A DNA stretch of 7,570 bases from a virus. Taxonomy: Duplodnaviria; Heunggongvirae; Uroviricota; Caudoviricetes. Position 1 is the first letter of the stretch; each line of letters starts with the position of its first letter. The stretch covers positions 1 through 7,570 of IMG/VR virus record IMGVR_UViG_2585427790_000004; one strand, given 5' to 3'. The notes beneath the pieces were generated by a model that was not told the DNA's origin, did no database searches, and was given only the letters and a program-made list of their open reading frames with translations. Below are positions 1 through 7,570 of the stretch, piece after piece. A program made the translations under genes and the position numbers.

Positions 1-93
1 GCACTGGCGCTCGGGCGTCGTGCGATTGGCGTTGAACTGGAGACCGGACGTTTTGAGCAGACAGTCAGGGAAGTTCAGGATTTAATCGTTTGA
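1..93 (+). CDS. 3' end of an ORF entering from upstream (5' partial); C-terminus resembles a beta-class DNA N6-adenine/N4-cytosine methyltransferase
   Basis: Frame 1 is open from position 1 to TGA at 91-93 and translates to ALALGRRAIGVELETGRFEQTVREVQDLIV*. The A-x-x-G-R-R-x-I-G-x-E pattern resembles the segment after the FxGxG AdoMet motif near the C-terminus of beta-class methyltransferases. Only 30 residues are visible, so the family call is tentative. Confidence 0.4.
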   Translation, partial: ALALGRRAIGVELETGRFEQTVREVQDLIV

Positions 94-104
94 AACGGAT
101 GATA

Positions 105-133
105 TTGAAGAATTAATTACGCGTCGTTATTAT
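105..133 (+). promoter_or_regulatory. sigma70-like promoter for the tRNA cluster
   Basis: TTGAAG at 105-110, a 17-bp spacer, then TATTAT at 128-133; the first tRNA begins at 143, about 9 nt downstream. Confidence 0.5.
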
Positions 134-142
134 GCGGCTCCC

Positions 143-218
143 GGCCCTTTAGCTCAGTGGTGAGAGCGAGCGACTCATAATCGCCAGGTCGCTGGTTCAA
201 ATCCAGCAAGGGCCACCA
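143..218 (+). tRNA. ileZ: tRNA with CAU anticodon, most likely tRNA-Ile2 (lysidine type) rather than tRNA-Met
   Basis: Cloverleaf read by hand: acceptor GGCCCTT (143-149) pairs with AAGGGCC (208-214), discriminator A, encoded CCA at 216-218; D stem GCTC/GAGC; anticodon loop CTCATAA; T loop TTCAAAT. Closely resembles E. coli ileX as I recall it. The symbol follows the 933W naming from memory. Confidence 0.85.
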
Positions 219-225
219 TCACATA

Positions 226-302
226 CCGCCATTAGCTCATCAGGATAGAGCGCCAGCCTTCGAAGCTGGTTGCGCGGGGTTCGAGTCCTCGATGGCGGTC
301 CA
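226..302 (+). tRNA. argN: tRNA-Arg (anticodon UCG, reads CGA/CGG)
   Basis: Acceptor CCGCCAT (226-232) pairs with ATGGCGG (292-298), discriminator T, encoded CCA at 300-302; D stem GCTC/GAGC; anticodon stem CCAGC/GCTGG with loop CTTCGAA (anticodon TCG at 260-262); T loop TTCGAGT. Unusual C1:G72 first pair. Starts 7 nt after the previous tRNA. Confidence 0.8.
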
Positions 303-315
303 TTATCTGTACCCT

Positions 316-392
316 GCGTTGTTAGCTCAGCCGGACAGAGCAATTGCCTTCTAAGCAATCGGTCACTGGTTCGAATCCAGTACAACGCGCCA
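316..392 (+). tRNA. argO: tRNA-Arg (anticodon UCU, reads AGA/AGG)
   Basis: Acceptor GCGTTGT (316-322) pairs with ACAACGC (382-388), discriminator G, CCA at 390-392; anticodon stem ATTGC/GCAAT with loop CTTCTAA (anticodon TCT at 350-352); T loop TTCGAAT. Resembles E. coli argU. Confidence 0.88.
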
Positions 393-406
393 CACTTATT
401 TTCCCT

Positions 407-432
407 GGCTCGCTTTTGCGGGCCTTTTTTTT
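407..432 (+). terminator. rho-independent terminator after the tRNA cluster
   Basis: Stem GGCTCGC (407-413) / GCGGGCC (418-424) with one G-U pair, loop TTTT, followed by a run of 8 T (425-432). Confidence 0.7.
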
Positions 433-627
433 AAATGTCTCACAATTCAGACGGTTGACTGTTGTCTGGTTGGCGGGGAGTTTGTTAAAAGAAACTGGCA
501 TGGTGAATCCCCCTGTGCGGAGGGGCAATCAGCGAGTAGGTATATGGGATAATCGCGGATTCAGGTGCTGGTACTGAATTCACCGGGAGGCACCCGGCAC
601 CATGCAATGGCACATAGCGCCACTCTC

Positions 628-662
628 CAGCCCCTCTCCGGAGGGGCTGTTTATATTGATTT
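628..662 (+). terminator. rho-independent terminator-like hairpin
   Basis: Perfect 9-bp stem CAGCCCCTC (628-636) / GAGGGGCTG (641-649), loop TCCG, followed by the T-rich tract TTTATATTGATTTT. It lies just before the convergent end of the minus-strand ORF at 684. Confidence 0.5.
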
Positions 663-683
663 TGTCAGATGTGAGTAAACTGC

Positions 684-1019
684 TTATGGACTTTGTTGTT
701 TTAGCCCATAAGGACATATTTGCAGAGTGCAACGGTTATTAAAGCATTCATTCAATACGTTATCTGTATTTGTAGGGCATTCCTGGCTGTTTTTGATTAA
801 ATTCCAGAATGTTTTATTGAATGGTACTACGTTGTAAATGGTTACAGGTAGCACTTTGTTATTGAGCATGATGCCTGTGTGAGTCAGTGTAAATATACTT
901 TCAGGAGGTAAGAAAGCATCCGATTGATACCAGATTATTAATTTTATTTTACTCCATATGACTGAAAAAGATATTCCGCATGATGGCTGGATAACTGTAT
1001 CAATCACAATCCACTTCAT
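684..1019 (-). CDS. hypothetical 111-aa protein in an AT-rich island, no family recognised
   Basis: Open frame of 111 codons in very AT-rich DNA, where stop codons are frequent. Good Shine-Dalgarno AAGGAA 6 nt upstream of the ATG (complement of 1017-1019). A candidate sigma70 promoter lies upstream on the minus strand (TTTACA / TATACT, complement of about 1060-1086). The protein ([22 protein letters not shown]...) matches nothing I know. Confidence 0.4.
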
Positions 1020-1279
1020 TTAGTTTCCTTGTTTATGCCTTGCTGGTGATGTTCTGAAAAGTATAAATGATATTTTTGATTGTAAACCATAGAGCAGAAT
1101 TATTTTTCTGATGTTGTTTATTGTTTATTTAAATGCAGGGTGGTTTATATCTCGTCTTGTAGTTTATCCATGCATATCTGCTTGATGATGAGGTTTTTAT
1201 TTAAGGTATGGTTTTGTGTTTTTTCTGTATTACATGTCAGGTATTTTAAAGAATCATTTTTCAGATGGTGGAAAGAACC

Positions 1280-3136
1280 ATGGCATTTAAACACTATGAT
1301 GTTGTCAGGGCGGCGTCGCCGTCAGATCTTGCGGAAAAGCTGACACATAAACTGAAAGAGGGCTGGCAGCCGTTTGGTAGTCCGGTGGCCATAACCCCTT
1401 ATACCCTGATGCAGGCGATTGCAGCAGAAGGTGATGTGGTGGTCAGTGGTGCAACTGAGCCGGATTGGTACTACGTCATCGTACTGGCCGGGCAGTCCAA
1501 TGCCATGGCTTACGGTGAAGGGCTTCCGCTGCCGGATTCATACGATGCGCCCCATCCGCGCATTAAGCAACTGGCCCGTCGTAACACAGTGACTCCCGGT
1601 GGTGAAGTATGCGTATTTAACGACATCATTCCTGCTGACCATTGTCTGCATGATGTTCAGGATATGAGTACGATTAACCATCCCCGGGCTGACCTGAGCA
1701 AAGGGCAGTACGGCTGTGTCGGACAGGGCTTACATATTGCCAAAAAACTGCTTCCGTATATCCCGAATAACGCGGGGATCCTGCTGGTACCATGCTGTCG
1801 TGGTGGTTCGGCATTCACCCAGGGCGCGGAGGGGACATTCAGTGCGGACACGGGGGCCAGCCAGGATTCGGCACGCTGGGGTGTGGGTAAACCGTTATAT
1901 CAGGACCTGATCGCACGCACCAAAGCGGCATTACAGAAGAACCCGAAAAATGTGTTGCTGGCGGTGTGCTGGATGCAGGGCGAATTTGACATGAGCGCTG
2001 CCACCTACGCACAGCAACCGGACCTGTTCACGGCCATGCTGAAGCAGTTCCGTACTGACCTTTCCGGATTTAACGCGCAGTGCCATGGCGGCAGTGCTGC
2101 AGTTGTACCGTGGATTTGTGGCGACACGACGTATTACTGGAAAAACACATACGGCACACAGTATGACTCCGTCTACGGCGCGTACAAAAACAGGGAGAGC
2201 GACAACGTTTTCTTTGTGCCGTTCATGACCGACGGTAACGGCAACAACACGCCCACCAACTTACCGGCAGAAGACCCGGATATTGCTGATGCAGGTTATT
2301 ACGGCGCGCAATCCCGTAGTAATGGTAATTGGGTATCGTCAAATCGTCCGACACATTTCAGTTCATGGGCGCGCAGGGGCATTATTTCGGATCGCCTGGC
2401 AACCGCTATTCTGAACGCAGTTGGTCGAACCAGCGCCTTCATCAGCGGTACCGCACCGGAGATTAAACCCTCGCCCGGCGGCGACACGCCATCGGGGCCG
2501 TCTGATGGTGACACATCCGTTCGTACAGTCTCCCTGCTGCCGACAGCCGGAGAGGCTGCTGCGCAGGGCTGGACCATCACCGGCGGCAGTGTTGCGCTGG
2601 AAGATGGTGTGTTTAAGGTTACCAAGCAGAGCAATAAAACCTGGTCCCTGATGCATCCGGTGGATGACGCAGTCTCCCTGCTGACACGGGGTGGCAGACT
2701 GAGCTGTAAGTTTCGACTGTCAGGCGCACTGATCAACAACCAGTTCGGTCTGGGAATTTATCTGTATACCGATGTAGCGTTACCTGACGTCGTGGCGATG
2801 ACCGGGACTGGTAACCCGTTCCTGATGTCGTTCTTCACCCAGACCACAGACGGCAAACTGAATCTGATGCATCACAGGAAAGCAGGAAACACAAAGTTGG
2901 GCGAGTTCGGGAATTACAGTAACGACTGGCAGACGCTGGAGCTGGTGTTCACCGCCGGCAGTGCCACGGTTACTCCGAAACTGAATGGAGTGGCTGGCCC
3001 GGCATTCCAGGTCATAAAAGACAGTCTGACACTGGGGCTGAATGCGCTGACGCTGACGGATATTACCAAAAATGCAGCGTATGGCGTTGAGATAGAAAGT
3101 CTGGTGCTGGAGATAAATGCACCGGCATCATCATAA
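1280..3136 (+). CDS. nanS-p: prophage sialate 9-O-acetylesterase (NanS-p-like, SASA/DUF303 family)
   Basis: Long ORF (1265..3136 in the ORF track). Contains the GQSN block (VIVLAGQSNAMAYGEG) typical of SGNH-type sialate O-acetylesterases, and sits between the tRNAs and the holin as nanS-p does in Stx phages. Start placed at ATG 1280 (MAFKHYDVV...) because GGTGGAAAG precedes it; the in-frame ATG at 1265 has no Shine-Dalgarno. Confidence 0.85.
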   Translation: MAFKHYDVVRAASPSDLAEKLTHKLKEGWQPFGSPVAITPYTLMQAIAAEGDVVVSGATEPDWYYVIVLAGQSNAMAYGEGLPLPDSYDAPHPRIKQLARRNTVTPGGEVCVFNDIIPADHCLHDVQDMSTINHPRADLSKGQYGCVGQGLHIAKKLLPYIPNNAGILLVPCCRGGSAFTQGAEGTFSADTGASQDSARWGVGKPLYQDLIARTKAALQKNPKNVLLAVCWMQGEFDMSAATYAQQPDLFTAMLKQFRTDLSGFNAQCHGGSAAVVPWICGDTTYYWKNTYGTQYDSVYGAYKNRESDNVFFVPFMTDGNGNNTPTNLPAEDPDIADAGYYGAQSRSNGNWVSSNRPTHFSSWARRGIISDRLATAILNAVGRTSAFISGTAPEIKPSPGGDTPSGPSDGDTSVRTVSLLPTAGEAAAQGWTITGGSVALEDGVFKVTKQSNKTWSLMHPVDDAVSLLTRGGRLSCKFRLSGALINNQFGLGIYLYTDVALPDVVAMTGTGNPFLMSFFTQTTDGKLNLMHHRKAGNTKLGEFGNYSNDWQTLELVFTAGSATVTPKLNGVAGPAFQVIKDSLTLGLNALTLTDITKNAAYGVEIESLVLEINAPASS

Positions 3137-3220
3137 AAAGTGAGCCAGTCAAATGGAAGGTATCGTTAAACTCACCGGTAGTGTCAGTGGGTCGTCTGAG
3201 ATGCCTGCATGAGTTATCAG

Positions 3221-3252
3221 AGCCATCAGTACTTAACTGGTGGCTTTTTTTA
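3221..3252 (+). terminator. rho-independent terminator between nanS-p and the holin
   Basis: Stem AGCCATCAG (3221-3229) / CTGGTGGCT (3237-3245) with one G-U pair, loop TACTTAA, followed by six T and TAT. Confidence 0.6.
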
Positions 3253-3286
3253 TTGTTGTCAGCTTCCGGATAACGGGAGACGGGGT

Positions 3287-3502
3287 ATGTACCAGATGGA
3301 AAAAATCACAACAGGTGTGTCATACACCACGTCAGCGGTGGGAACGGGCTACTGGTTCCTGCAGTTGCTGGACAGGGTTTCCCCGTCTCAGTGGGCGGCA
3401 ATAGGCGTGCTGGGGAGTCTGCTGTTTGGGTTGCTGACATATCTGACTAACCTGTATTTCAAAATCAGAGAGGACCGTCGTAAGGCGGCGCGGGGAGAGT
3501 AA
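3287..3502 (+). CDS. S: class II holin (phage 21 S-like, 71 aa)
   Basis: [71 protein letters not shown]: two transmembrane segments and a charged C-terminus, near-identical in layout to the S21 holin as recalled. GGGAGA Shine-Dalgarno 6 nt upstream. Met1 and Met4 give a dual-start motif. The track ORF from 3209 is an unsupported N-terminal extension. Confidence 0.85.
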
Positions 3503-3506
3503 AGCG

Positions 3507-3851
3507 ATGAAGAAAAAATACGAACTGGTTGTTAAAGGGATAAATAATTACCCGAATAAGATTACTGTTACTGTGGCACTGGAAATTGGTGGGTATCCGT
3601 CACTGTTGTTGCCAGATGTGGCGATTAGTCTTGACCGTACTGAAGATGCCACGCTGGAGTTTTACGAAGCTGAGGCGAAAAAGCAGGCGAAGCAGTTTTT
3701 CATGGATGTTGCTGCCGGGTTATGTGAAGGGGATGGTCCGTTGCCGGAAAAGCGCCCCGTAATTTTAGAGGCGCAGGATGTGTTGATAACCTACAGAGGA
3801 AAACTACCGGGAATAATTACTGGTTCTCTGAAGACTCCACCGCTGGCCTGA
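3507..3851 (+). CDS. 114-aa protein of unknown function, probably DUF1327 (YdfR-like)
   Basis: Begins 5 nt after the holin stop and lies between holin and endolysin, the position of ydfR in the Qin prophage as I recall. The family assignment is from memory of similar proteins, not a search. Confidence 0.65.
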   Translation: MKKKYELVVKGINNYPNKITVTVALEIGGYPSLLLPDVAISLDRTEDATLEFYEAEAKKQAKQFFMDVAAGLCEGDGPLPEKRPVILEAQDVLITYRGKLPGIITGSLKTPPLA

Positions 3852-3901
3852 AGACTTAACATATCCAGGGATTTGAAATCGATAAACCCTGATAAATATC
3901 C

Positions 3902-4435
3902 ATGAACACCAAAATCAAATACGGCCTGTCGGCTGCCGTTCTGGCGCTGATTGCCGCAGGTGCGCCTGCGCCTGAAATCCTCGACCAGTTTCTGGATGAA
4001 AAGGAAGGTAACCACACCACGGCATACCGTGATGGCGCGGGTATCTGGACCATCTGCCGCGGTGCCATCCTGGTGGATGGCAAACCTGTCGTTCCGGGCA
4101 TGAAGTTGTCGAAGGAAAAATGCGACCGGGTTAACGCCATTGAGCGTGATAAGGCGCTGGCATGGGTGGAGAAAAACATCAGAGTGCCATTGAGTGAACC
4201 CCAGAAAGCGGGGATCGCGTCATTCTGTCCGTACAACATTGGCCCCGGTAAGTGTTTTCCGTCGACGTTTTATAAACGAATTAATGCAGGTGATCGCAGG
4301 GGAGCGTGTGAGGCGATTCGCTGGTGGATTAAGGACGGTGGCAGAGACTGCCGTATTCGCTCAAATAACTGTTACGGTCAGGTATCCCGTCGTGACCAGG
4401 AGAGCGCGCTGGCGTGCTGGGGAATCGACAGATAA
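3902..4435 (+). CDS. R: SAR endolysin (phage lysozyme, GH24 / T4-lysozyme fold)
   Basis: N-terminal Gly/Ala-rich weakly hydrophobic segment (MNTKIKYGLSAAVLALIAAGA) typical of signal-anchor-release endolysins, followed by the catalytic E-x8-D-x5-T spacing (EGNHTTAYRDGAGIWT). 177 aa. Confidence 0.9.
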   Translation: MNTKIKYGLSAAVLALIAAGAPAPEILDQFLDEKEGNHTTAYRDGAGIWTICRGAILVDGKPVVPGMKLSKEKCDRVNAIERDKALAWVEKNIRVPLSEPQKAGIASFCPYNIGPGKCFPSTFYKRINAGDRRGACEAIRWWIKDGGRDCRIRSNNCYGQVSRRDQESALACWGIDR

Positions 4436-4525
4436 GCAGAATATTTTGCTAATCAATGACGTTGGCCAAGGCGGACGGATAACACGAAATCCTGCGAACT
4501 GGCAAAATGTAAGTGAATAAAAGTA

Positions 4526-4558
4526 AAAACCCCGTTTGTTGGCTGCAAGCGGGGTTTT
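4526..4558. terminator. bidirectional terminator-like hairpin in the R-Rz gap
   Basis: 9-bp stem AAAACCCCG (4526-4534) / CGGGGTTTT (4550-4558) around a 15-nt loop; T-rich sequence follows on both strands. The large loop makes strength uncertain. Confidence 0.35.
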
Positions 4559-4633
4559 GTGTTTCCTGACTCTGGAAAAGTCAAAGGAGAAAGTGTGTTT
4601 GATTTTAGCAAACTGATTCGGGAGATTCGAGTG

Positions 4634-4732
4634 ATGGCTGGAAAATTATCCACCTGGAAGTTCATTCTTATCTGGCTGGTGTTTGTGATTATGGCCTCCG
4701 GTTATTTCATCGGTCAGATACGCTGGTGGTGA
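4634..4732 (+). CDS. possible 32-aa single-pass membrane peptide (alternative GTG start at 4595 gives 45 aa)
   Basis: Not in the ORF track because it is too short. ATG 4634 to TGA 4730-4732 encodes MAGKLSTWKFILIWLVFVIMASGYFIGQIRWW with a hydrophobic core. GGGAGA lies 8 nt upstream of the ATG, and AGGAG lies 5 nt upstream of the GTG at 4595. Its stop is 1 nt from the Rz start (TGAAATG). Confidence 0.35.
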   Translation: MAGKLSTWKFILIWLVFVIMASGYFIGQIRWW

Positions 4733-4733
4733 A

Positions 4734-5201
4734 ATGAACCGCGTACTGTGCGTGGTCATCATTGCCCTGCTGGTGGCCTGTGGTGCGCTTAGTCTGGGGC
4801 TGAATCATTACCGTGATAACGCCATAACCTACAAAGAGCAGCGCGATAAAAAAGTCAGTGAGCTGGAGCAGGCAAATGCAACCATTACTGATATGCAGCA
4901 GCGCCAGCGTGATGTTGCTGCACTTGATGCCAGATACTCGAGGGAATTAGCCGATGCGAGAGCTGAAAATGAAACTCTGCGCGCTGACGTTGCCGCTGGT
5001 CGTAAGCGCCTGCGGATCAACGCCACCTGCCCCGGTACCGTGCGTGAAGCCCCCACCACCTCCGGCGTGGATAATGCAACCGGCCCCCGACTGGCAGACA
5101 CCGCTGAACGGGATTATTTCACTCTCAGAGAGCGGTTGATGCTGACGCAGAAGCAGCTGGAAGTGGCGCAGGAATATATCCGCACTCAGTGCCTGAAATA
5201 A
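4734..5201 (+). CDS. Rz: Rz inner-membrane spanin (i-spanin)
   Basis: N-terminal transmembrane segment (MNRVLCVVIIALLVACGALSL) followed by a charged, coiled-coil-like periplasmic domain; position after the endolysin; 155 aa. Confidence 0.9.
   Translation: MNRVLCVVIIALLVACGALSLGLNHYRDNAITYKEQRDKKVSELEQANATITDMQQRQRDVAALDARYSRELADARAENETLRADVAAGRKRLRINATCPGTVREAPTTSGVDNATGPRLADTAERDYFTLRERLMLTQKQLEVAQEYIRTQCLK
4954..5139 (+). CDS. Rz1: Rz1 outer-membrane lipoprotein spanin (o-spanin), embedded in Rz in the +1 frame
   Basis: MRELKMKLCALTLPLVVSACGST...: lipobox LVVSAC and a proline-rich mature region (CVKPPPPPAWIMQPAPDWQTPLNGII) very like lambda Rz1 as recalled; wholly inside Rz. Confidence 0.85.
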   Translation: MRELKMKLCALTLPLVVSACGSTPPAPVPCVKPPPPPAWIMQPAPDWQTPLNGIISLSESG

Positions 5202-5229
5202 GTTTTGCTGATGCGCGGTATTGTCGCCG

Positions 5230-5294
5230 TATCCCCGCATTAACAGAGACCGCAGCCCGACCGGGAGACTCCTCTGCGCGAGTGTGCGGGGATA
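5230..5294. repeat. long imperfect palindrome at the Rz / tail-fibre junction
   Basis: TATCCCCGCA (5230-5239) is the exact reverse complement of TGCGGGGATA (5285-5294); inside are nested pairs CAGAG/CTCTG and CCCG/CGGG. No T-run follows. Confidence 0.5.
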
Positions 5295-5295
5295 A

Positions 5296-6742
5296 TCAAA
5301 AACGATACACACCGGGGTTTCTGCAGCAAAAACCTCTGAAACAAATGCAAAGACTTCAGCAGATAATGCTGCTTCCTCTAAGGCGGCAGCCGCATCGTCA
5401 GCCAGTTCAGCGGCGTCATCGGCATCATCTGCGTCTGCTTCAAAAGATGAGGCGACCAGACAAGCGTCAGCAGCGAAAGGTAGTGCCACGACAGCAACAA
5501 TGAAAGCATCAGAGGCAGCTGGTAGTGTGACGGCGGCAGCTCAGAGCAAAAGTACGGCGGAATCCGCGGCAACGCGCGCCGAGACAGCAGCAAAACGGGC
5601 AGAGGATATTGCATCCGCCGTGGCGCTGGAGGATGCGAGCACGACGAAAAAGGGGATAGTACAGCTCAGCAGTGCGACCAACAGCACTTCCGAGTCACTG
5701 GCGGCAACGCCAAAAGCGGTTAAGGCGGTAATGGGTGAAACGAACAAGAAAGCGCCCTTAAATAGTCCTGCACTGACCGGAACGCCAACAACACCAACTG
5801 CGCGACAGGGAACGAATAATACCCAAATCGCAAGCACGGCTTATGTTATGGCTGCGATCGCTGCCCTCGTGGACTCGTCGCCTGACGCACTGAATACGCT
5901 GAACGAGCTGGCTGCGGCGTTGGGCAACGACCCGAATTTTGCGACCACCATGACTAACGCGCTTGCGGGTAAGCAACCGAAAGATGCCACCCTGACGGCG
6001 CTGGCCGGGCTTGCTACTGCGGCAGACAGGTTTCCGTATTTTACGGGGAATGATGTTGCCAGTCTGGCAACCCTGACAAAAGTTGGGCGGGATATTCTTG
6101 CGAAATCGACCGTTGCCGCCGTTATCGAATACCTCGGTTTACGAGAACTCGGCACAAGCGGGGAGAAAATACCGTTACTCAGTACAGCGAATACCTGGAC
6201 TAATCGACAAACATTCAGCGGTGGCCTTTCTGGTGAACTATCCGGCAATGCTTCTACAGCTGCAAAATTAAAAACTGCCAGGAAAATAAGCAATGTGGCT
6301 TTTGATGGTTCCTCCGATATCACATTAAAAGCAAGTCATGTTGGTGCGTTTGCCTTAGGGAAAACAGGAAGCACCGTTGCGAATGATAAAGCAGTTGGAT
6401 GGAACTGGAGTAGCGGAGCCTATAACGCAACTATTAGTGGTGCATCAACGTTAATTATTCATTTTTATATGGGAGAAGGAAGTTGTCCTGCAGTTCAGTT
6501 TCGGATTAATTATAAAAATGGCGGTATTTTTTATCGTTCAGCCCGTGATGGTTATGGTTTTGAAGCCGACTGGTCCGAATTTTACACCACCACCAGAAAA
6601 CCTTCAGCAGGAGATGTTGGTGCACTGCCGTTATCTGGTGGTCAACTGAATGGTGCACTGGGTATCGGAACATCCAGTGCTCTTGGCGGTAATTCGATTG
6701 TATTGGGTGATAATGACACGGGCTTTAAACAAAATGGCGATG
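5296..6742 (+). pseudogene. side tail fibre (Stf-like) gene fragment, missing its 5' end and cut at its 3' end by the IS
   Basis: The frame of track ORF 5500..6903 is open back to the TAA at 5293-5295 with no start codon before 5500, and already encodes Ala/Ser-rich fibre repeats (ETNAKTSADNAASSKAAAASS...). It continues with GIVQLSSATNSTSESLAATPKAVKAV and ...LGDNDTGFKQNGD, typical of lambdoid Stf and T4 gp37-type fibres. After GD the frame runs into IS sequence at 6743. Confidence 0.8.
6122..6147. other. gix/hix-like DNA-invertase crossover site inside the tail-fibre gene
   Basis: TTATCGAATACC TC GGTTTACGAGAA: two 12-bp inverted half-sites around a 2-bp core; its reverse complement matches the Mu gixL site as I recall it (TTCCTGTAAACCGAGGTTTTGGATAA) at 22 of 26 positions, with the central AAACCGAGGTTT identical. 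Confidence 0.5.
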
Positions 6743-7570
6743 TGAACCGCCCCGGGTTTCCTGGAGAGTGTTTTATCTGTGAACTCAGGCTGCCAGATCA
6801 TCGTTTCCGATGGAAGCATAATAAGCTTTTTCTGCTTCTGCCGGAGGAGTATGGCCCAGCCTTTCCAGCAATCGTCGATTGTTATACCAGTCCACCCACG
6901 TGAGTGTGGCCAGTTCCACTTCTGCACGGTTTTTCCAGCTCTTACGGTGTATTACCTCCGCTTTGTAAAGACCATTGATGCTCTCCGCCATCGCGTTGTC
7001 ATACGAGTCGCCTGTACTTCCTGTTGATGCCAGTAATCCGGCTTCCTTAAGCCGCTGTGTGTAGGCCAGCGATACATACTGAGAACCTTTATCACTGTGA
7101 TGGACCGTGCCGGACGGTCGACGGGCCCATAACGCCTGCTCCAGTGCATCCAGCACGAATGTCGTTTCCATGGACGATGAGACCCGCCACCCCACGATGT
7201 ATCCGGCAAACACATCAATGATGAACGCCACATAGACGAAGCCCCGCCATGTGCTGACGTAAGTAAAATCAGCCACCCACAGCTGGTCAGGTCGTTCTGC
7301 CACGAACTGACGGTTTACGCGGTCGCCTGCGACAACGGCTTTCCGGCTGATGGTCGTACGGACCTTTTTACCCCGGAGAACACCGGCAAGTCCCATAACC
7401 GCCATGAGACGTGCCACAGTGCATCTGGCCACTCTGATACCTTCCCGTAACAACTGACGCCAGACTTTACGCACACCGTATACCTTGTGATTTTCATCGT
7501 ATACGCGCTGTATCTCTTTCTTCAGCCAGTCATCGCGCTGCGCACGGGCACTGCGTTTATCCGGATGATG
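6743..7570 (-). mobile_element. IS3-family insertion sequence (IS629-like), 3' part; continues beyond the window
   Basis: The tail-fibre frame breaks at 6743, where a terminus beginning TGAACCGCCCCGGG starts (IS3-family ends are 5'-TG...CA-3'). The transposase OrfB stop lies about 40 bp inside that end. Confidence 0.8.
6785..7570 (-). CDS. IS3-family transposase OrfB (DDE integrase domain), N-terminus beyond the window
   Basis: Track ORF 6785..7474 plus an open in-frame extension to 7570 (...HHPDKRSARAQRDDWLKKEIQRVYDENHKVYGV RKVWRQLL...). DDE-type blocks are present: LWVADFTY, HHSDKGSQY, YDNAMAESINGLYKAE. Matches IS629/IS1203-type OrfB from memory. Confidence 0.9.
   Translation of the reverse strand, partial: HHPDKRSARAQRDDWLKKEIQRVYDENHKVYGVRKVWRQLLREGIRVARCTVARLMAVMGLAGVLRGKKVRTTISRKAVVAGDRVNRQFVAERPDQLWVADFTYVSTWRGFVYVAFIIDVFAGYIVGWRVSSSMETTFVLDALEQALWARRPSGTVHHSDKGSQYVSLAYTQRLKEAGLLASTGSTGDSYDNAMAESINGLYKAEVIHRKSWKNRAEVELATLTWVDWYNNRRLLERLGHTPPAEAEKAYYASIGNDDLAA

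Follow-up and report, generated by a model that had tools for sequence, protein, structure and literature searches.

In its classical form, a moron carries its own promoter ahead of the gene and a terminator behind it, and the prophage expresses it. The concept reportedly goes back to Juhala and Hendrix, and HK97 gp15 is one example, a small membrane-protein moron. In P22 sar/ant, a promoter inside the start of the target gene fires backwards, and the resulting RNA of about 70 nucleotides (nt) covers the ribosome-binding site and terminates at a bidirectional terminator-like hairpin in the upstream intercistronic gap. Lysis cassettes can hold extra membrane proteins, P2 LysA being one. Here we describe a small gene that invites comparison with all of these. 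It lies between the endolysin gene R and the i-spanin gene Rz in a 7,570-nt stretch of phage DNA (IMG/VR record IMGVR_UViG_2585427790_000004, positions 1 to 7,570; "the window" is this whole stretch), which represents the late region of a defective E. coli prophage of the lambdoid type. The gene encodes a 45-residue peptide, predicted to be a membrane protein, and is under purifying selection. Judged from its relatives, it forms part of a portable cassette of about 215 nt (window 4517-4732) that consists of a terminator-like hairpin (HP1), a structured leader and the membrane-peptide gene.

The cassette resembles a moron in being an extra gene wedged where relatives have adjacent genes, with a G+C content unlike that of its flanks (43.5% for the small gene, 54.9% for R and 55.8% for Rz). 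It also sits in Q-antiterminated late operons tolerant of an internal terminator, at hot spots shared with ant and Bro-N cargo genes. Unlike a moron, it has its terminator upstream and none downstream, the search for a dedicated promoter found none, and its gene runs up against, or is coupled to, the late gene that follows. The predicted layout of the cassette is the same as that of P22 sar/ant, where sar is a small antisense RNA lying across the ribosome-binding site (cited in PMC5415839). The target here, however, is a 45-residue membrane peptide and not an antirepressor, the two loci have no sequence similarity, and the layout of the cassette is predicted from sequence alone.

Type I toxin-antitoxin systems such as Hok/Sok, hokW-sokW of Sp5, SymE/SymR and Ibs/Sib provide another parallel. 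The cassette has a small single-helix membrane peptide, a predicted occluded ribosome-binding site, a candidate cis-antisense RNA and a location on mobile elements. It differs in lacking a dedicated toxin promoter or terminator, and in placing the helix at the C-terminus behind a 20-residue amphipathic head that would be cytoplasmic. Searches of Pfam and NCBIfam gave no match above threshold to type I toxin families (Hok, Ldr, TisB, Ibs, ShoB, Zor and others). Among lysis proteins, Mu releasin gp25 (DUF2730) is a further extra membrane protein of a lysis cassette (PMC9239132). The peptide shares with P2 LysA, Mu gp25 and the holins with dual starts an endolysin-spanin position, a predicted membrane location and two conserved in-frame starts. 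It is not homologous to LysA or gp25, is much smaller, and is frequent outside lysis cassettes. Its predicted topology is the reverse of that of gp25, with the helix at the C-terminus, and it has no DUF2730 match in Pfam; its tail, QIRWW, lacks the charged hydrophilic character of holin tails, and no holin PHROG or Pfam family matches it. By these sequence comparisons the peptide belongs neither to the holins nor to the releasins nor to the known defence proteins, and the likeness to type I toxins or lysis modulators that the initial annotation drew stands as an analogy.

The gene itself is already known as a database hypothetical protein. The entries phrog_6632 and WP_000459345.1 represent the same protein family over its full length, but carry no function, leader, covariation or link to an IRWW tail. 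Literature searches found no prior description of the leader, its reuse, the IRWW-tail link or the frozen codons reported below.

The small gene and its leader

A direct reading of the letters bears out the layout that the initial annotation gave for the R-Rz gap. R stops at TAA 4433-4435. The hairpin at 4526-4558 reads AAAACCCCGTTTGT-tggct-GCAAGCGGGGTTTT and is followed by GTGTTTCC. An AGGAG (4585-4589) stands 5 nt before the GTG at 4595 that starts the 45-residue open reading frame (ORF), within a frame open from 4559 to 4732 in the ORF list; the shorter, 32-residue option has GGGAG (4620-4624) 9 nt before the ATG at 4634. The stop TGA (4730-4732) lies 1 nt before the Rz ATG at 4734 (TGAaATG), and a 1-nt junction is also present in 106 related loci. 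The single hydrophobic helix that had been described is recovered as well, the best 19-residue Kyte-Doolittle window covering residues 24-42 with a mean of 2.13. Features are collected in Table 1.

The small ORF is a protein-coding gene under purifying selection. It matches phrog_6632 from end to end (residues 1-45 on profile positions 1-45, E 1.6e-28), and RefSeq holds the hypothetical protein WP_000459345.1 at the same coordinates (4595-4732) in NZ_CP033884. The NCBI annotation pipeline (PGAP) annotates it in some genomes and omits it in many. Viral and genome collections were scanned for further copies with a search that required both peptide motifs in frame and so could not return frameshifted ones. 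It recovered 171, which comprise 45 distinct 45-codon sequences, every one of them open. Frameshifted or stop-lost alleles are rare (P0018, P0025, P0027 and P0041). Start codons are GTG or TTG, one GTA excepted. In Nei-Gojobori counts over 14 divergent representatives, the pooled proportion of nonsynonymous differences (pN) was 0.19 and that of synonymous differences (pS) 0.61, for a dN/dS of about 0.18, and synonymous sites in codons 19-45 were saturated (pS 0.78). The suggestion that R and Rz are separated by a distinct small cargo gene thus held up, the ORF being conserved and moving as a unit with the hairpin, and its reading frame is intact in relatives save for those few alleles.

A profile search of 1.84 billion representative proteins widened the family to 41 clusters, which keep the same layout and have 42-54 residues apart from a few longer or truncated gene calls. 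Members occur in Escherichia, Salmonella, Citrobacter, Yersinia, Brenneria, Providencia and one Azoarcus metagenome-assembled genome (MAG). The N-terminal half of the peptide is amphipathic and cationic, with a net charge of +3. A single transmembrane helix is predicted at about residues 24-42, followed by the five-residue tail QIRWW with one charge, and AlphaFold returns one helix over residues 4-44 (mean confidence, pLDDT, 84.5). The peptide is predicted to be tail-anchored, with its N-terminus inside and its C-terminus outside. Sequence searches of Pfam, NCBIfam, PADLOC and PDB with the peptide gave no meaningful match, and PADLOC returned 0 families at E up to 1 for the peptide and four array partners. 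Residue 16 of the window peptide is Gly (GGA, 4640-4642), which is shared only with L007; nearly all relatives have Glu (GAA or GAG).

The leader begins with HP1, a stem of 14 pairs, six of them G-C, set between a conserved A-tract (4517-4529) and a U/pyrimidine tract (4555-4566). The tracts that follow the stem, TTTTGTGTTTCC on the + strand and TTTTTACTTTTATTC on the - strand, make HP1 look terminator-like on both strands, with free energies of -21.6 kcal/mol (+) and -14.2 kcal/mol (-). The number of terminators in the scan, four against 2.6 expected, was near chance, so the case for a real HP1 comes from the relatives. Across their alignment 95% of cells are paired and 8 of 11 pairs have changed on both sides; none of 500 shuffles scored as high, and slid controls reached at most 64%. 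The A-tract is nearly invariant. HP1 precedes every family member examined except the Dryocola copy (L094), in which the N-terminus of the ORF is replaced, and the most distant member (L189). Since it travels with the ORF behind four unrelated endolysins and behind non-lysis genes, HP1 belongs to the small gene and not to R. Likeness to an integron attC site or to a miniature inverted-repeat transposable element was considered and dropped, HP1 being a plain G+C-rich terminator hairpin without inverted-repeat termini.

The second hairpin, HP2, adds to its inner stem an outer pairing between UUUCC of the pyrimidine tract and the Shine-Dalgarno sequence AGGAG (4585-4589), a fold that, by prediction, would mask the ribosome-binding site serving the GTG. 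It usually accompanies the ORF in relatives, where it adjoins or overlaps the Shine-Dalgarno sequence. RNAfold pairs the pyrimidine tract with the Shine-Dalgarno sequence in most of 26 leaders. The inner stem varies in sequence: TGACT/AGTCA in the window, and CCTTG/CAAGG, CCTG/CAGG, CGTTA/TAACG or CCTTCTG/CAGAAGG elsewhere. In a hand-picked alignment 93% of cells pair and three of five pairs are compensatory, a level that 0 of 500 shuffles reach. The stem of the window lies 3 nt upstream of the commonest register. HP2 appears to be conserved by compensatory change, on weaker evidence than HP1. A long-range pairing of the U-tract with the internal Shine-Dalgarno sequence, seen in the window's own fold, is absent from the RNAalifold consensus and was rejected.

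Genomic contexts and reuse of the leader

That R and Rz are contiguous elsewhere had been stated from the outset, and they are so in K-12 Qin and in phage PhiR49_2, which provide empty sites. The R-Rz junction was also said to receive cargo in Shiga toxin (Stx) phages; Min27 and Sakai Sp15 have ant there, followed by a 48-residue ORF that is annotated in Sp15 and also readable in the Min27 sequence. BLAST matches to phages of the 933W/Min27 type end at about query 142-151, that is window 4521-4530, and a comparison of Min27, 783R2 and Sakai Sp4 agrees. The spacer just after R is shared with these ant-bearing phages and is therefore not part of the portable cassette, whose left edge is the A-tract immediately before HP1. 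This spacer holds an 8-codon mini-ORF (4457-4483, + strand; ATG ACG TTG GCC AAG GCG GAC GGA TAA). Its frame and stop (GGATAA) are kept in Min27, 783R2 and Sakai Sp4, most of its residues differ, and chance is a possible explanation.

We grouped and annotated the genes on either side of the 171 copies. The initial annotation had proposed a search for the peptide next to Rz in other prophages; about 120 copies lie between an endolysin (GH24, phrog_873, GH19 or CHAP) and an i-spanin (phrog_13, 214 or 1026). About 33 copies lie between a baseplate spike gene (gpV) and a wedge gene. The cassette also follows lambda gpK (L166, L179), occupies the interval between gpT and the tape measure gene (L178), is flanked by a T7-gp14-like protein and a 772-residue protein with a transglycosylase-like motif (L092), stands beside DUF5675 or SHOCT genes (L176, L183), and occurs among the type II pairs ParE/RelB, YafQ/RelB and PrlF/YhaV (L187, L188). 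Salmonella phage SEN34 exemplifies the spike-wedge setting. Its 45-residue ORF again starts with GTG and has upstream of it a terminator-like hairpin, a pyrimidine tract and a small hairpin. Regulation in SEN34 is lambda-like, its single long late operon lying behind a Q-like antiterminator, so an internal terminator would be tolerable in that operon. The same order of leader and ORF is found in Citrobacter, Yersinia, Brenneria, Symbiopectobacterium, Providencia, the Azoarcus MAG and distant metagenome members.

The leader is also found in front of other genes. A covariance model of the 80-nt leader detected full-length copies before other tiny ORFs. In Sakai Sp4 (L186) one such copy, at 24788-24867 on the minus strand, is followed by an 8-codon ORF and then by ECs_1094. 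L179 has a second cassette at 1910-1990, in the interval between gpL and gpK. L187 has leader copies at 2419-2499, 3123-3205 and 4649-4731, with two further cassettes among them, interleaved with type II toxin-antitoxin pairs, and L190 has tandem cassettes (2647-2720 and 2864-2940). Several peptides that follow such leaders are otherwise dissimilar and share a C-terminal (A/V/Q)IRWW.

The R-Rz gap is moreover a hot spot for tiny single-helix ORFs of other families (phrog_4906 and phrog_1115/3246/4493). These can form closely coupled runs of as many as four ORFs, in some cases behind ant. Phage vB_EcoS-783R2 has four tiny membrane ORFs in this gap (L005 1715-2198). In that array HP1 is carried by the first ORF only.

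Expression and possible roles of the peptide

On balance, and with modest confidence, we take the small gene to be a passenger of the late operon in temperate, mostly lambdoid phages, made by read-through and otherwise tightly silenced. A simple sigma-70 consensus scan found no + strand promoter between 3100 and 5600, and HP1 lies only about 36 nt from the start codon. With no such promoter found, transcripts that continue past HP1 would be the only source of the peptide. In lytic growth RNA polymerase under Q antitermination would pass HP1, whereas stray transcription in the lysogen would be blocked there. Translation would be held down by the weakness of GTG as a start and by the masking of the ribosome-binding site, and an antisense RNA would perhaps add to the silencing in the lysogen. 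Ribosomes that stop at the TGA (4730-4732) could reinitiate at the Rz ATG (4734), restoring the translational coupling of R and Rz that the insertion broke. The peptide would act in the cytoplasmic membrane late in infection. Such heavy silencing suggests a peptide that is harmful if made at the wrong time. The position between endolysin and spanin favours a link to lysis, and the copies in baseplate, tail and island settings indicate that adjacency to lysis genes is not required.

Several points weigh against this proposal. We found no report of expression, localisation or phenotype for any family member. The consensus sigma-70 scan leaves room for a non-canonical or phage-specific promoter. 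Q antitermination is supported for SEN34, and most of the host phages are not covered by that support. Late-operon read-through cannot be general, since some distant members are isolated in islands, a long way from any upstream gene of the same orientation (L187). The stems of HP2 are short: a stem of at least 5 bp within the 34 nt before the start is reached by 54% of shuffles, so that a generic stem search does no better than shuffling and the argument for HP2 comes solely from position-specific covariation. Finally, read-through alone does not account for the frozen synonymous sites of codons 1-18.

Those sites form a second layer of constraint. Among the 45 distinct sequences, synonymous change is nearly absent in codons 1-6, 10, 12 and 17 and abundant later, with a pS of 0.33 for codons 2-18 against the saturated value of codons 19-45. 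The frozen codons include GAT (43/43), TTT (31/31), AGC (45/45), AAA (44/45), GAG (44/44) and CGA (45/45). They fit two readings, an internal start and a minus-strand promoter. In favour of the former, the ATG of codon 14 is invariant (45/45), all 44 Glu codons at position 10 are GAG and codon 9 is only ever CGG or AGG. Distant members, despite differing residues, retain a purine-rich GGAG, GAGGAG or AAGGAG, and 32-residue forms are called in some genomes (P0022/P0023). A 32-residue product from the second start is plausible, and the conservation of both start options makes a dual start possible.

The minus-strand promoter leads to another account of the cassette, in which a toxic peptide is held under a cis-antisense RNA in the manner of type I systems or of P22 sar/ant. 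A leftward extended -10 in codons 3-6 would start an RNA of about 72 nt that ends at HP1. By prediction this RNA would begin opposite the GTG, be complementary to the Shine-Dalgarno sequence and HP2, run through an A-rich stretch and end at HP1, where the A-tract would give it a U-tail. It would silence leaky mRNA in the lysogen and be outrun by the flood of late mRNA in lytic growth. This account can coexist with the read-through proposal, differing in the role it gives to HP1 and the frozen codons, and we regard it as quite possible while stopping short of calling it probable. In its favour stands the freezing of the early codons. The TGnTAnnnT of the -10 (TGnTAAAAT in its full form) is kept in 11 of 12 diverse members, with residues as different as HISR, HLSR, NSSK, DLSK and NFIK. 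It outlives residue changes, as a change of S to I affects only the n, and replacing F by I, L or S leaves TAnnnT in place. Under random synonymous choice the probability of a match given the residues is 0.002-0.24 per member; the motif overlaps a conserved peptide motif, and shared ancestry inflates its apparent significance. The minus-strand fold of 4520-4596 has a free energy of -21.9 kcal/mol (z -4.0), the A-tract before HP1 hardly varies, and distant members lie among type II toxin-antitoxin pairs. A precedent is the prophage type I pair hokW-sokW of Sp5, which aids phage release (PMC8621323). The idea, raised in the initial annotation, that the hairpin might end an antisense RNA thus gains indirect support from the A-tract and the minus-strand motif, and it stays a prediction.

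Other observations speak against such an RNA. No transcript evidence for it was found. The candidate -35, TCGAAT (4625-4630) at a 17-nt spacer, is poor (TCGAAT or TCGCAA, 3/6), which explains why the consensus scan misses the site. There is no Rfam family match; the one hit on this minus-strand stretch, to the rimP leader, was sub-threshold (28 bits against a gathering score of 47, E 0.25) and was discarded. Classical type I loci have a promoter for the toxin mRNA, which the cassette lacks. In 23 of 26 leaders the + strand form of HP1 is the more stable one, because G-U pairs turn into A-C mismatches on the minus strand, although the Azoarcus copy is the opposite and far more stable on the minus strand (-23.6 against -13.5). 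Assigning the hairpins to a strand from this G-U asymmetry was tried, and with HP2 at 16 against 9 and Azoarcus reversed it was not decisive. None of the orphan small RNAs (sRNAs) in the Hfq-CRAC list for Sakai falls in the R-Rz gap of Sp4 or of Sp15, and the supplements of the Sakai ribosome-profiling (RIBOseq) paper on small genes do not contain the peptide. Both prophages lack this ORF, which makes the two comparisons uninformative and the missing sRNA entry a weak point against the antisense RNA. A further minus-strand promoter from the scan, 4717-4688 (CTGACC-18-CATAAT), is not conserved (L088, for example, has TTGCCC...AGCGAC) and was set aside.

The position of most copies invites a role in lysis timing, with the peptide acting on the pinholin, the signal-arrest-release (SAR) endolysin or the spanin, and with the 45- and 32-residue forms as an effector-inhibitor pair like that made by holin dual starts. 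P2 lysA would be a precedent. Mu releasin gp25 would be another (PMC9239132). The endolysin-to-i-spanin copies combine four unrelated endolysin families with three spanin families, a single nucleotide separates the stop from the Rz start, conservation extends to the internal ribosome-binding site and its ATG, and the window has a lysis cassette of the kind found in phage 21, its holin being class II and its endolysin SAR-like. Many of these R-Rz copies, however, come from near-identical prophages and are not independent, and the spike-to-wedge copies, together with those in tail operons and non-phage islands, lie away from lysis genes. The peptide also shows no homology to holins, antiholins, LysA or DUF2730, and its five-residue tail with one charge is unlike the charged tails of holins. 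We think a timing role on the whole unlikely. A lysogenic-conversion or exclusion peptide in the style of the HK97 gp15 moron, made from the prophage and blocking the entry of superinfecting DNA or altering the host membrane, is less probable still. The gene does carry the moron signature of an extra, lower-G+C gene at junctions contiguous in relatives, it occurs at classic moron spots in tail operons, and Bro-N/ant cargo genes and further tiny membrane ORFs are found alongside it. Against this, the consensus scan found no + strand promoter; the terminator is upstream of the gene, where it would block expression from the prophage, and not downstream; and PADLOC has no match. That nothing here is functional, the hairpin being the terminator of R and the ORF a chance frame or decaying remnant, we can hardly credit. 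The omissions by PGAP, the few broken alleles and the truncation of the window prophage after Rz would fit it. The comparative data already contradict it, as far as the sequences tell: the hairpin goes with the ORF and not with R, the protein is under purifying selection at saturated synonymous sites, and the family spreads from Escherichia to the Azoarcus MAG.

Beyond the read-through proposal, a wider reading can be offered, which we hold to be rather doubtful. The locus may belong to an unrecognised class of micro-cassettes, in which a bidirectional terminator and a hairpin masking the ribosome-binding site precede a gene for an IRWW-tailed membrane peptide of about 45 residues. Silencing would come from a cis-antisense RNA that each cassette makes for itself from an extended -10 in the first codons, and the cassettes would spread, singly or in tandem, through late operons and toxin-antitoxin islands across Proteobacteria. 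This would be a new phage-borne type I-like family, with the peptide acting at the inner membrane at lysis.

DNA near-identical to window 4380-4800 is found in at least 871 of 5426 complete E. coli genomes (at least 80% query coverage), about one in six, and also in Salmonella phages and in Stx1a-, Stx2a- and Stx2c-converting phages, yet the gene is inconsistently annotated. If the peptide alters lysis timing or membrane integrity, phage release would be affected, and in Stx phages toxin release as well. Tiny phage membrane-peptide genes that escape gene callers can be sought with the conserved leader as an RNA signature, and the frozen codons offer a directly testable case of an antisense promoter embedded in coding sequence. 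An upstream terminator without a promoter widens the view of how cargo genes are insulated within antiterminated operons.

Setting of the window

The lysis genes of the window are a class II holin, a YdfR/DUF1327 gene, the GH24 endolysin R, Rz and the embedded Rz1. A terminator-like hairpin (3219-3247) lies between the SASA-family esterase and these genes.

Table 1. Features of the window and related small ORFs at R-Rz junctions elsewhere
Feature	Position	Strand	Remarks
Three tRNA genes	143-389	+	Moron site downstream of late promoter
STnc100 sRNA family match	469-658	+	133 bits, E 5.7e-30; after tRNA genes
SASA-family carbohydrate esterase, 623 residues	1265-3136	+	Type found in the Stx-phage late regions examined; upstream of holin
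YdfR/DUF1327 gene	3507-3851	+	E 2.4e-45; between holin and endolysin; conserved lysis-cassette passenger without assigned function
Endolysin R, GH24 phage lysozyme	3902-4435	+	Ala/Gly-rich N-terminal segment of SAR type; PF00959 E 1.3e-23; phrog_7; RefSeq "lysozyme"
Spacer after R	4436-4516	+	Common to lambdoid phages with ant in place of the cassette
Predicted cis-antisense RNA, about 72 nt	4522-4595	-	Placed from the -10 position and HP1
HP1, G+C-rich intrinsic-terminator hairpin	4526-4558		5' boundary of the cassette; terminator scan, covariation
HP2, small hairpin	4562-4590	+	Inner stem TGACT 4567-4571 / AGTCA 4579-4583
Small ORF, 45 residues from GTG	4595-4732	+	MFDFSKLIREIRVMAGKLSTWKFILIWLVFVIMASGYFIGQIRWW; 32 residues from ATG 4634; phrog_6632, RefSeq, conservation
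Predicted extended -10 promoter	4601-4612	-	TTTGCTAAAATC; reverse complement of codons 3-6, GAT TTT AGC AAA
Internal Shine-Dalgarno GGGAG 4620-4624 and ATG 4634-4636 (codon 14)	4620-4636	+	9-nt spacing; possible second start
Rz (i-spanin)	4734-5201	+	PF03245 E 4e-48; phrog_13 and phrog_3198
Rz1 (o-spanin)	4954-5139	+	Embedded in Rz
R-Rz tiny ORF, Min27	L004 3409-3543
R-Rz tiny ORF, Sp15	L175 14749-14895		ECs_5741
R-Rz tiny ORF, Sp4	L186 24614-24727		ECs_1094

At the site of Sakai Sp4 that matches the tRNA/STnc100 site of the window, the tRNA genes are tRNA-Ile (anticodon CAT), tRNA-Arg (TCG) and tRNA-Arg (TCT). A 111-residue ORF at 684-1019 on the minus strand has a counterpart in strain 50579417, matched by position and length only, that is annotated as the anti-adapter protein IraM and would be host-regulator cargo.

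Three perfect Chi octamers, GCTGGTGG, lie on the + strand at 4320-4327, 4722-4729 and 4769-4776, all within 460 nt around the R-Rz junction. The count of three in the window compares with 0.31 expected and was reached in 1 of 200 shuffles. Their positions near the right end of a lambdoid genome could be relevant for RecBCD. The middle octamer encodes the Arg-Trp-Trp end of the small ORF. Selection for Chi as the reason for IRWW, with RWW written as CGC TGG TGG, was examined and rejected, since the Arg-43 codons (CGC 22, CGT 14, CGA 8, CGG 1) are close to ordinary usage.

The prophage is truncated after Rz (window 5202-7570), at the place where relatives have terminase genes. A tail-fibre-like ORF of 467 residues (5500-6903) follows Rz, and its end overlaps an IS3-family transposase (6785-7474) on the other strand.

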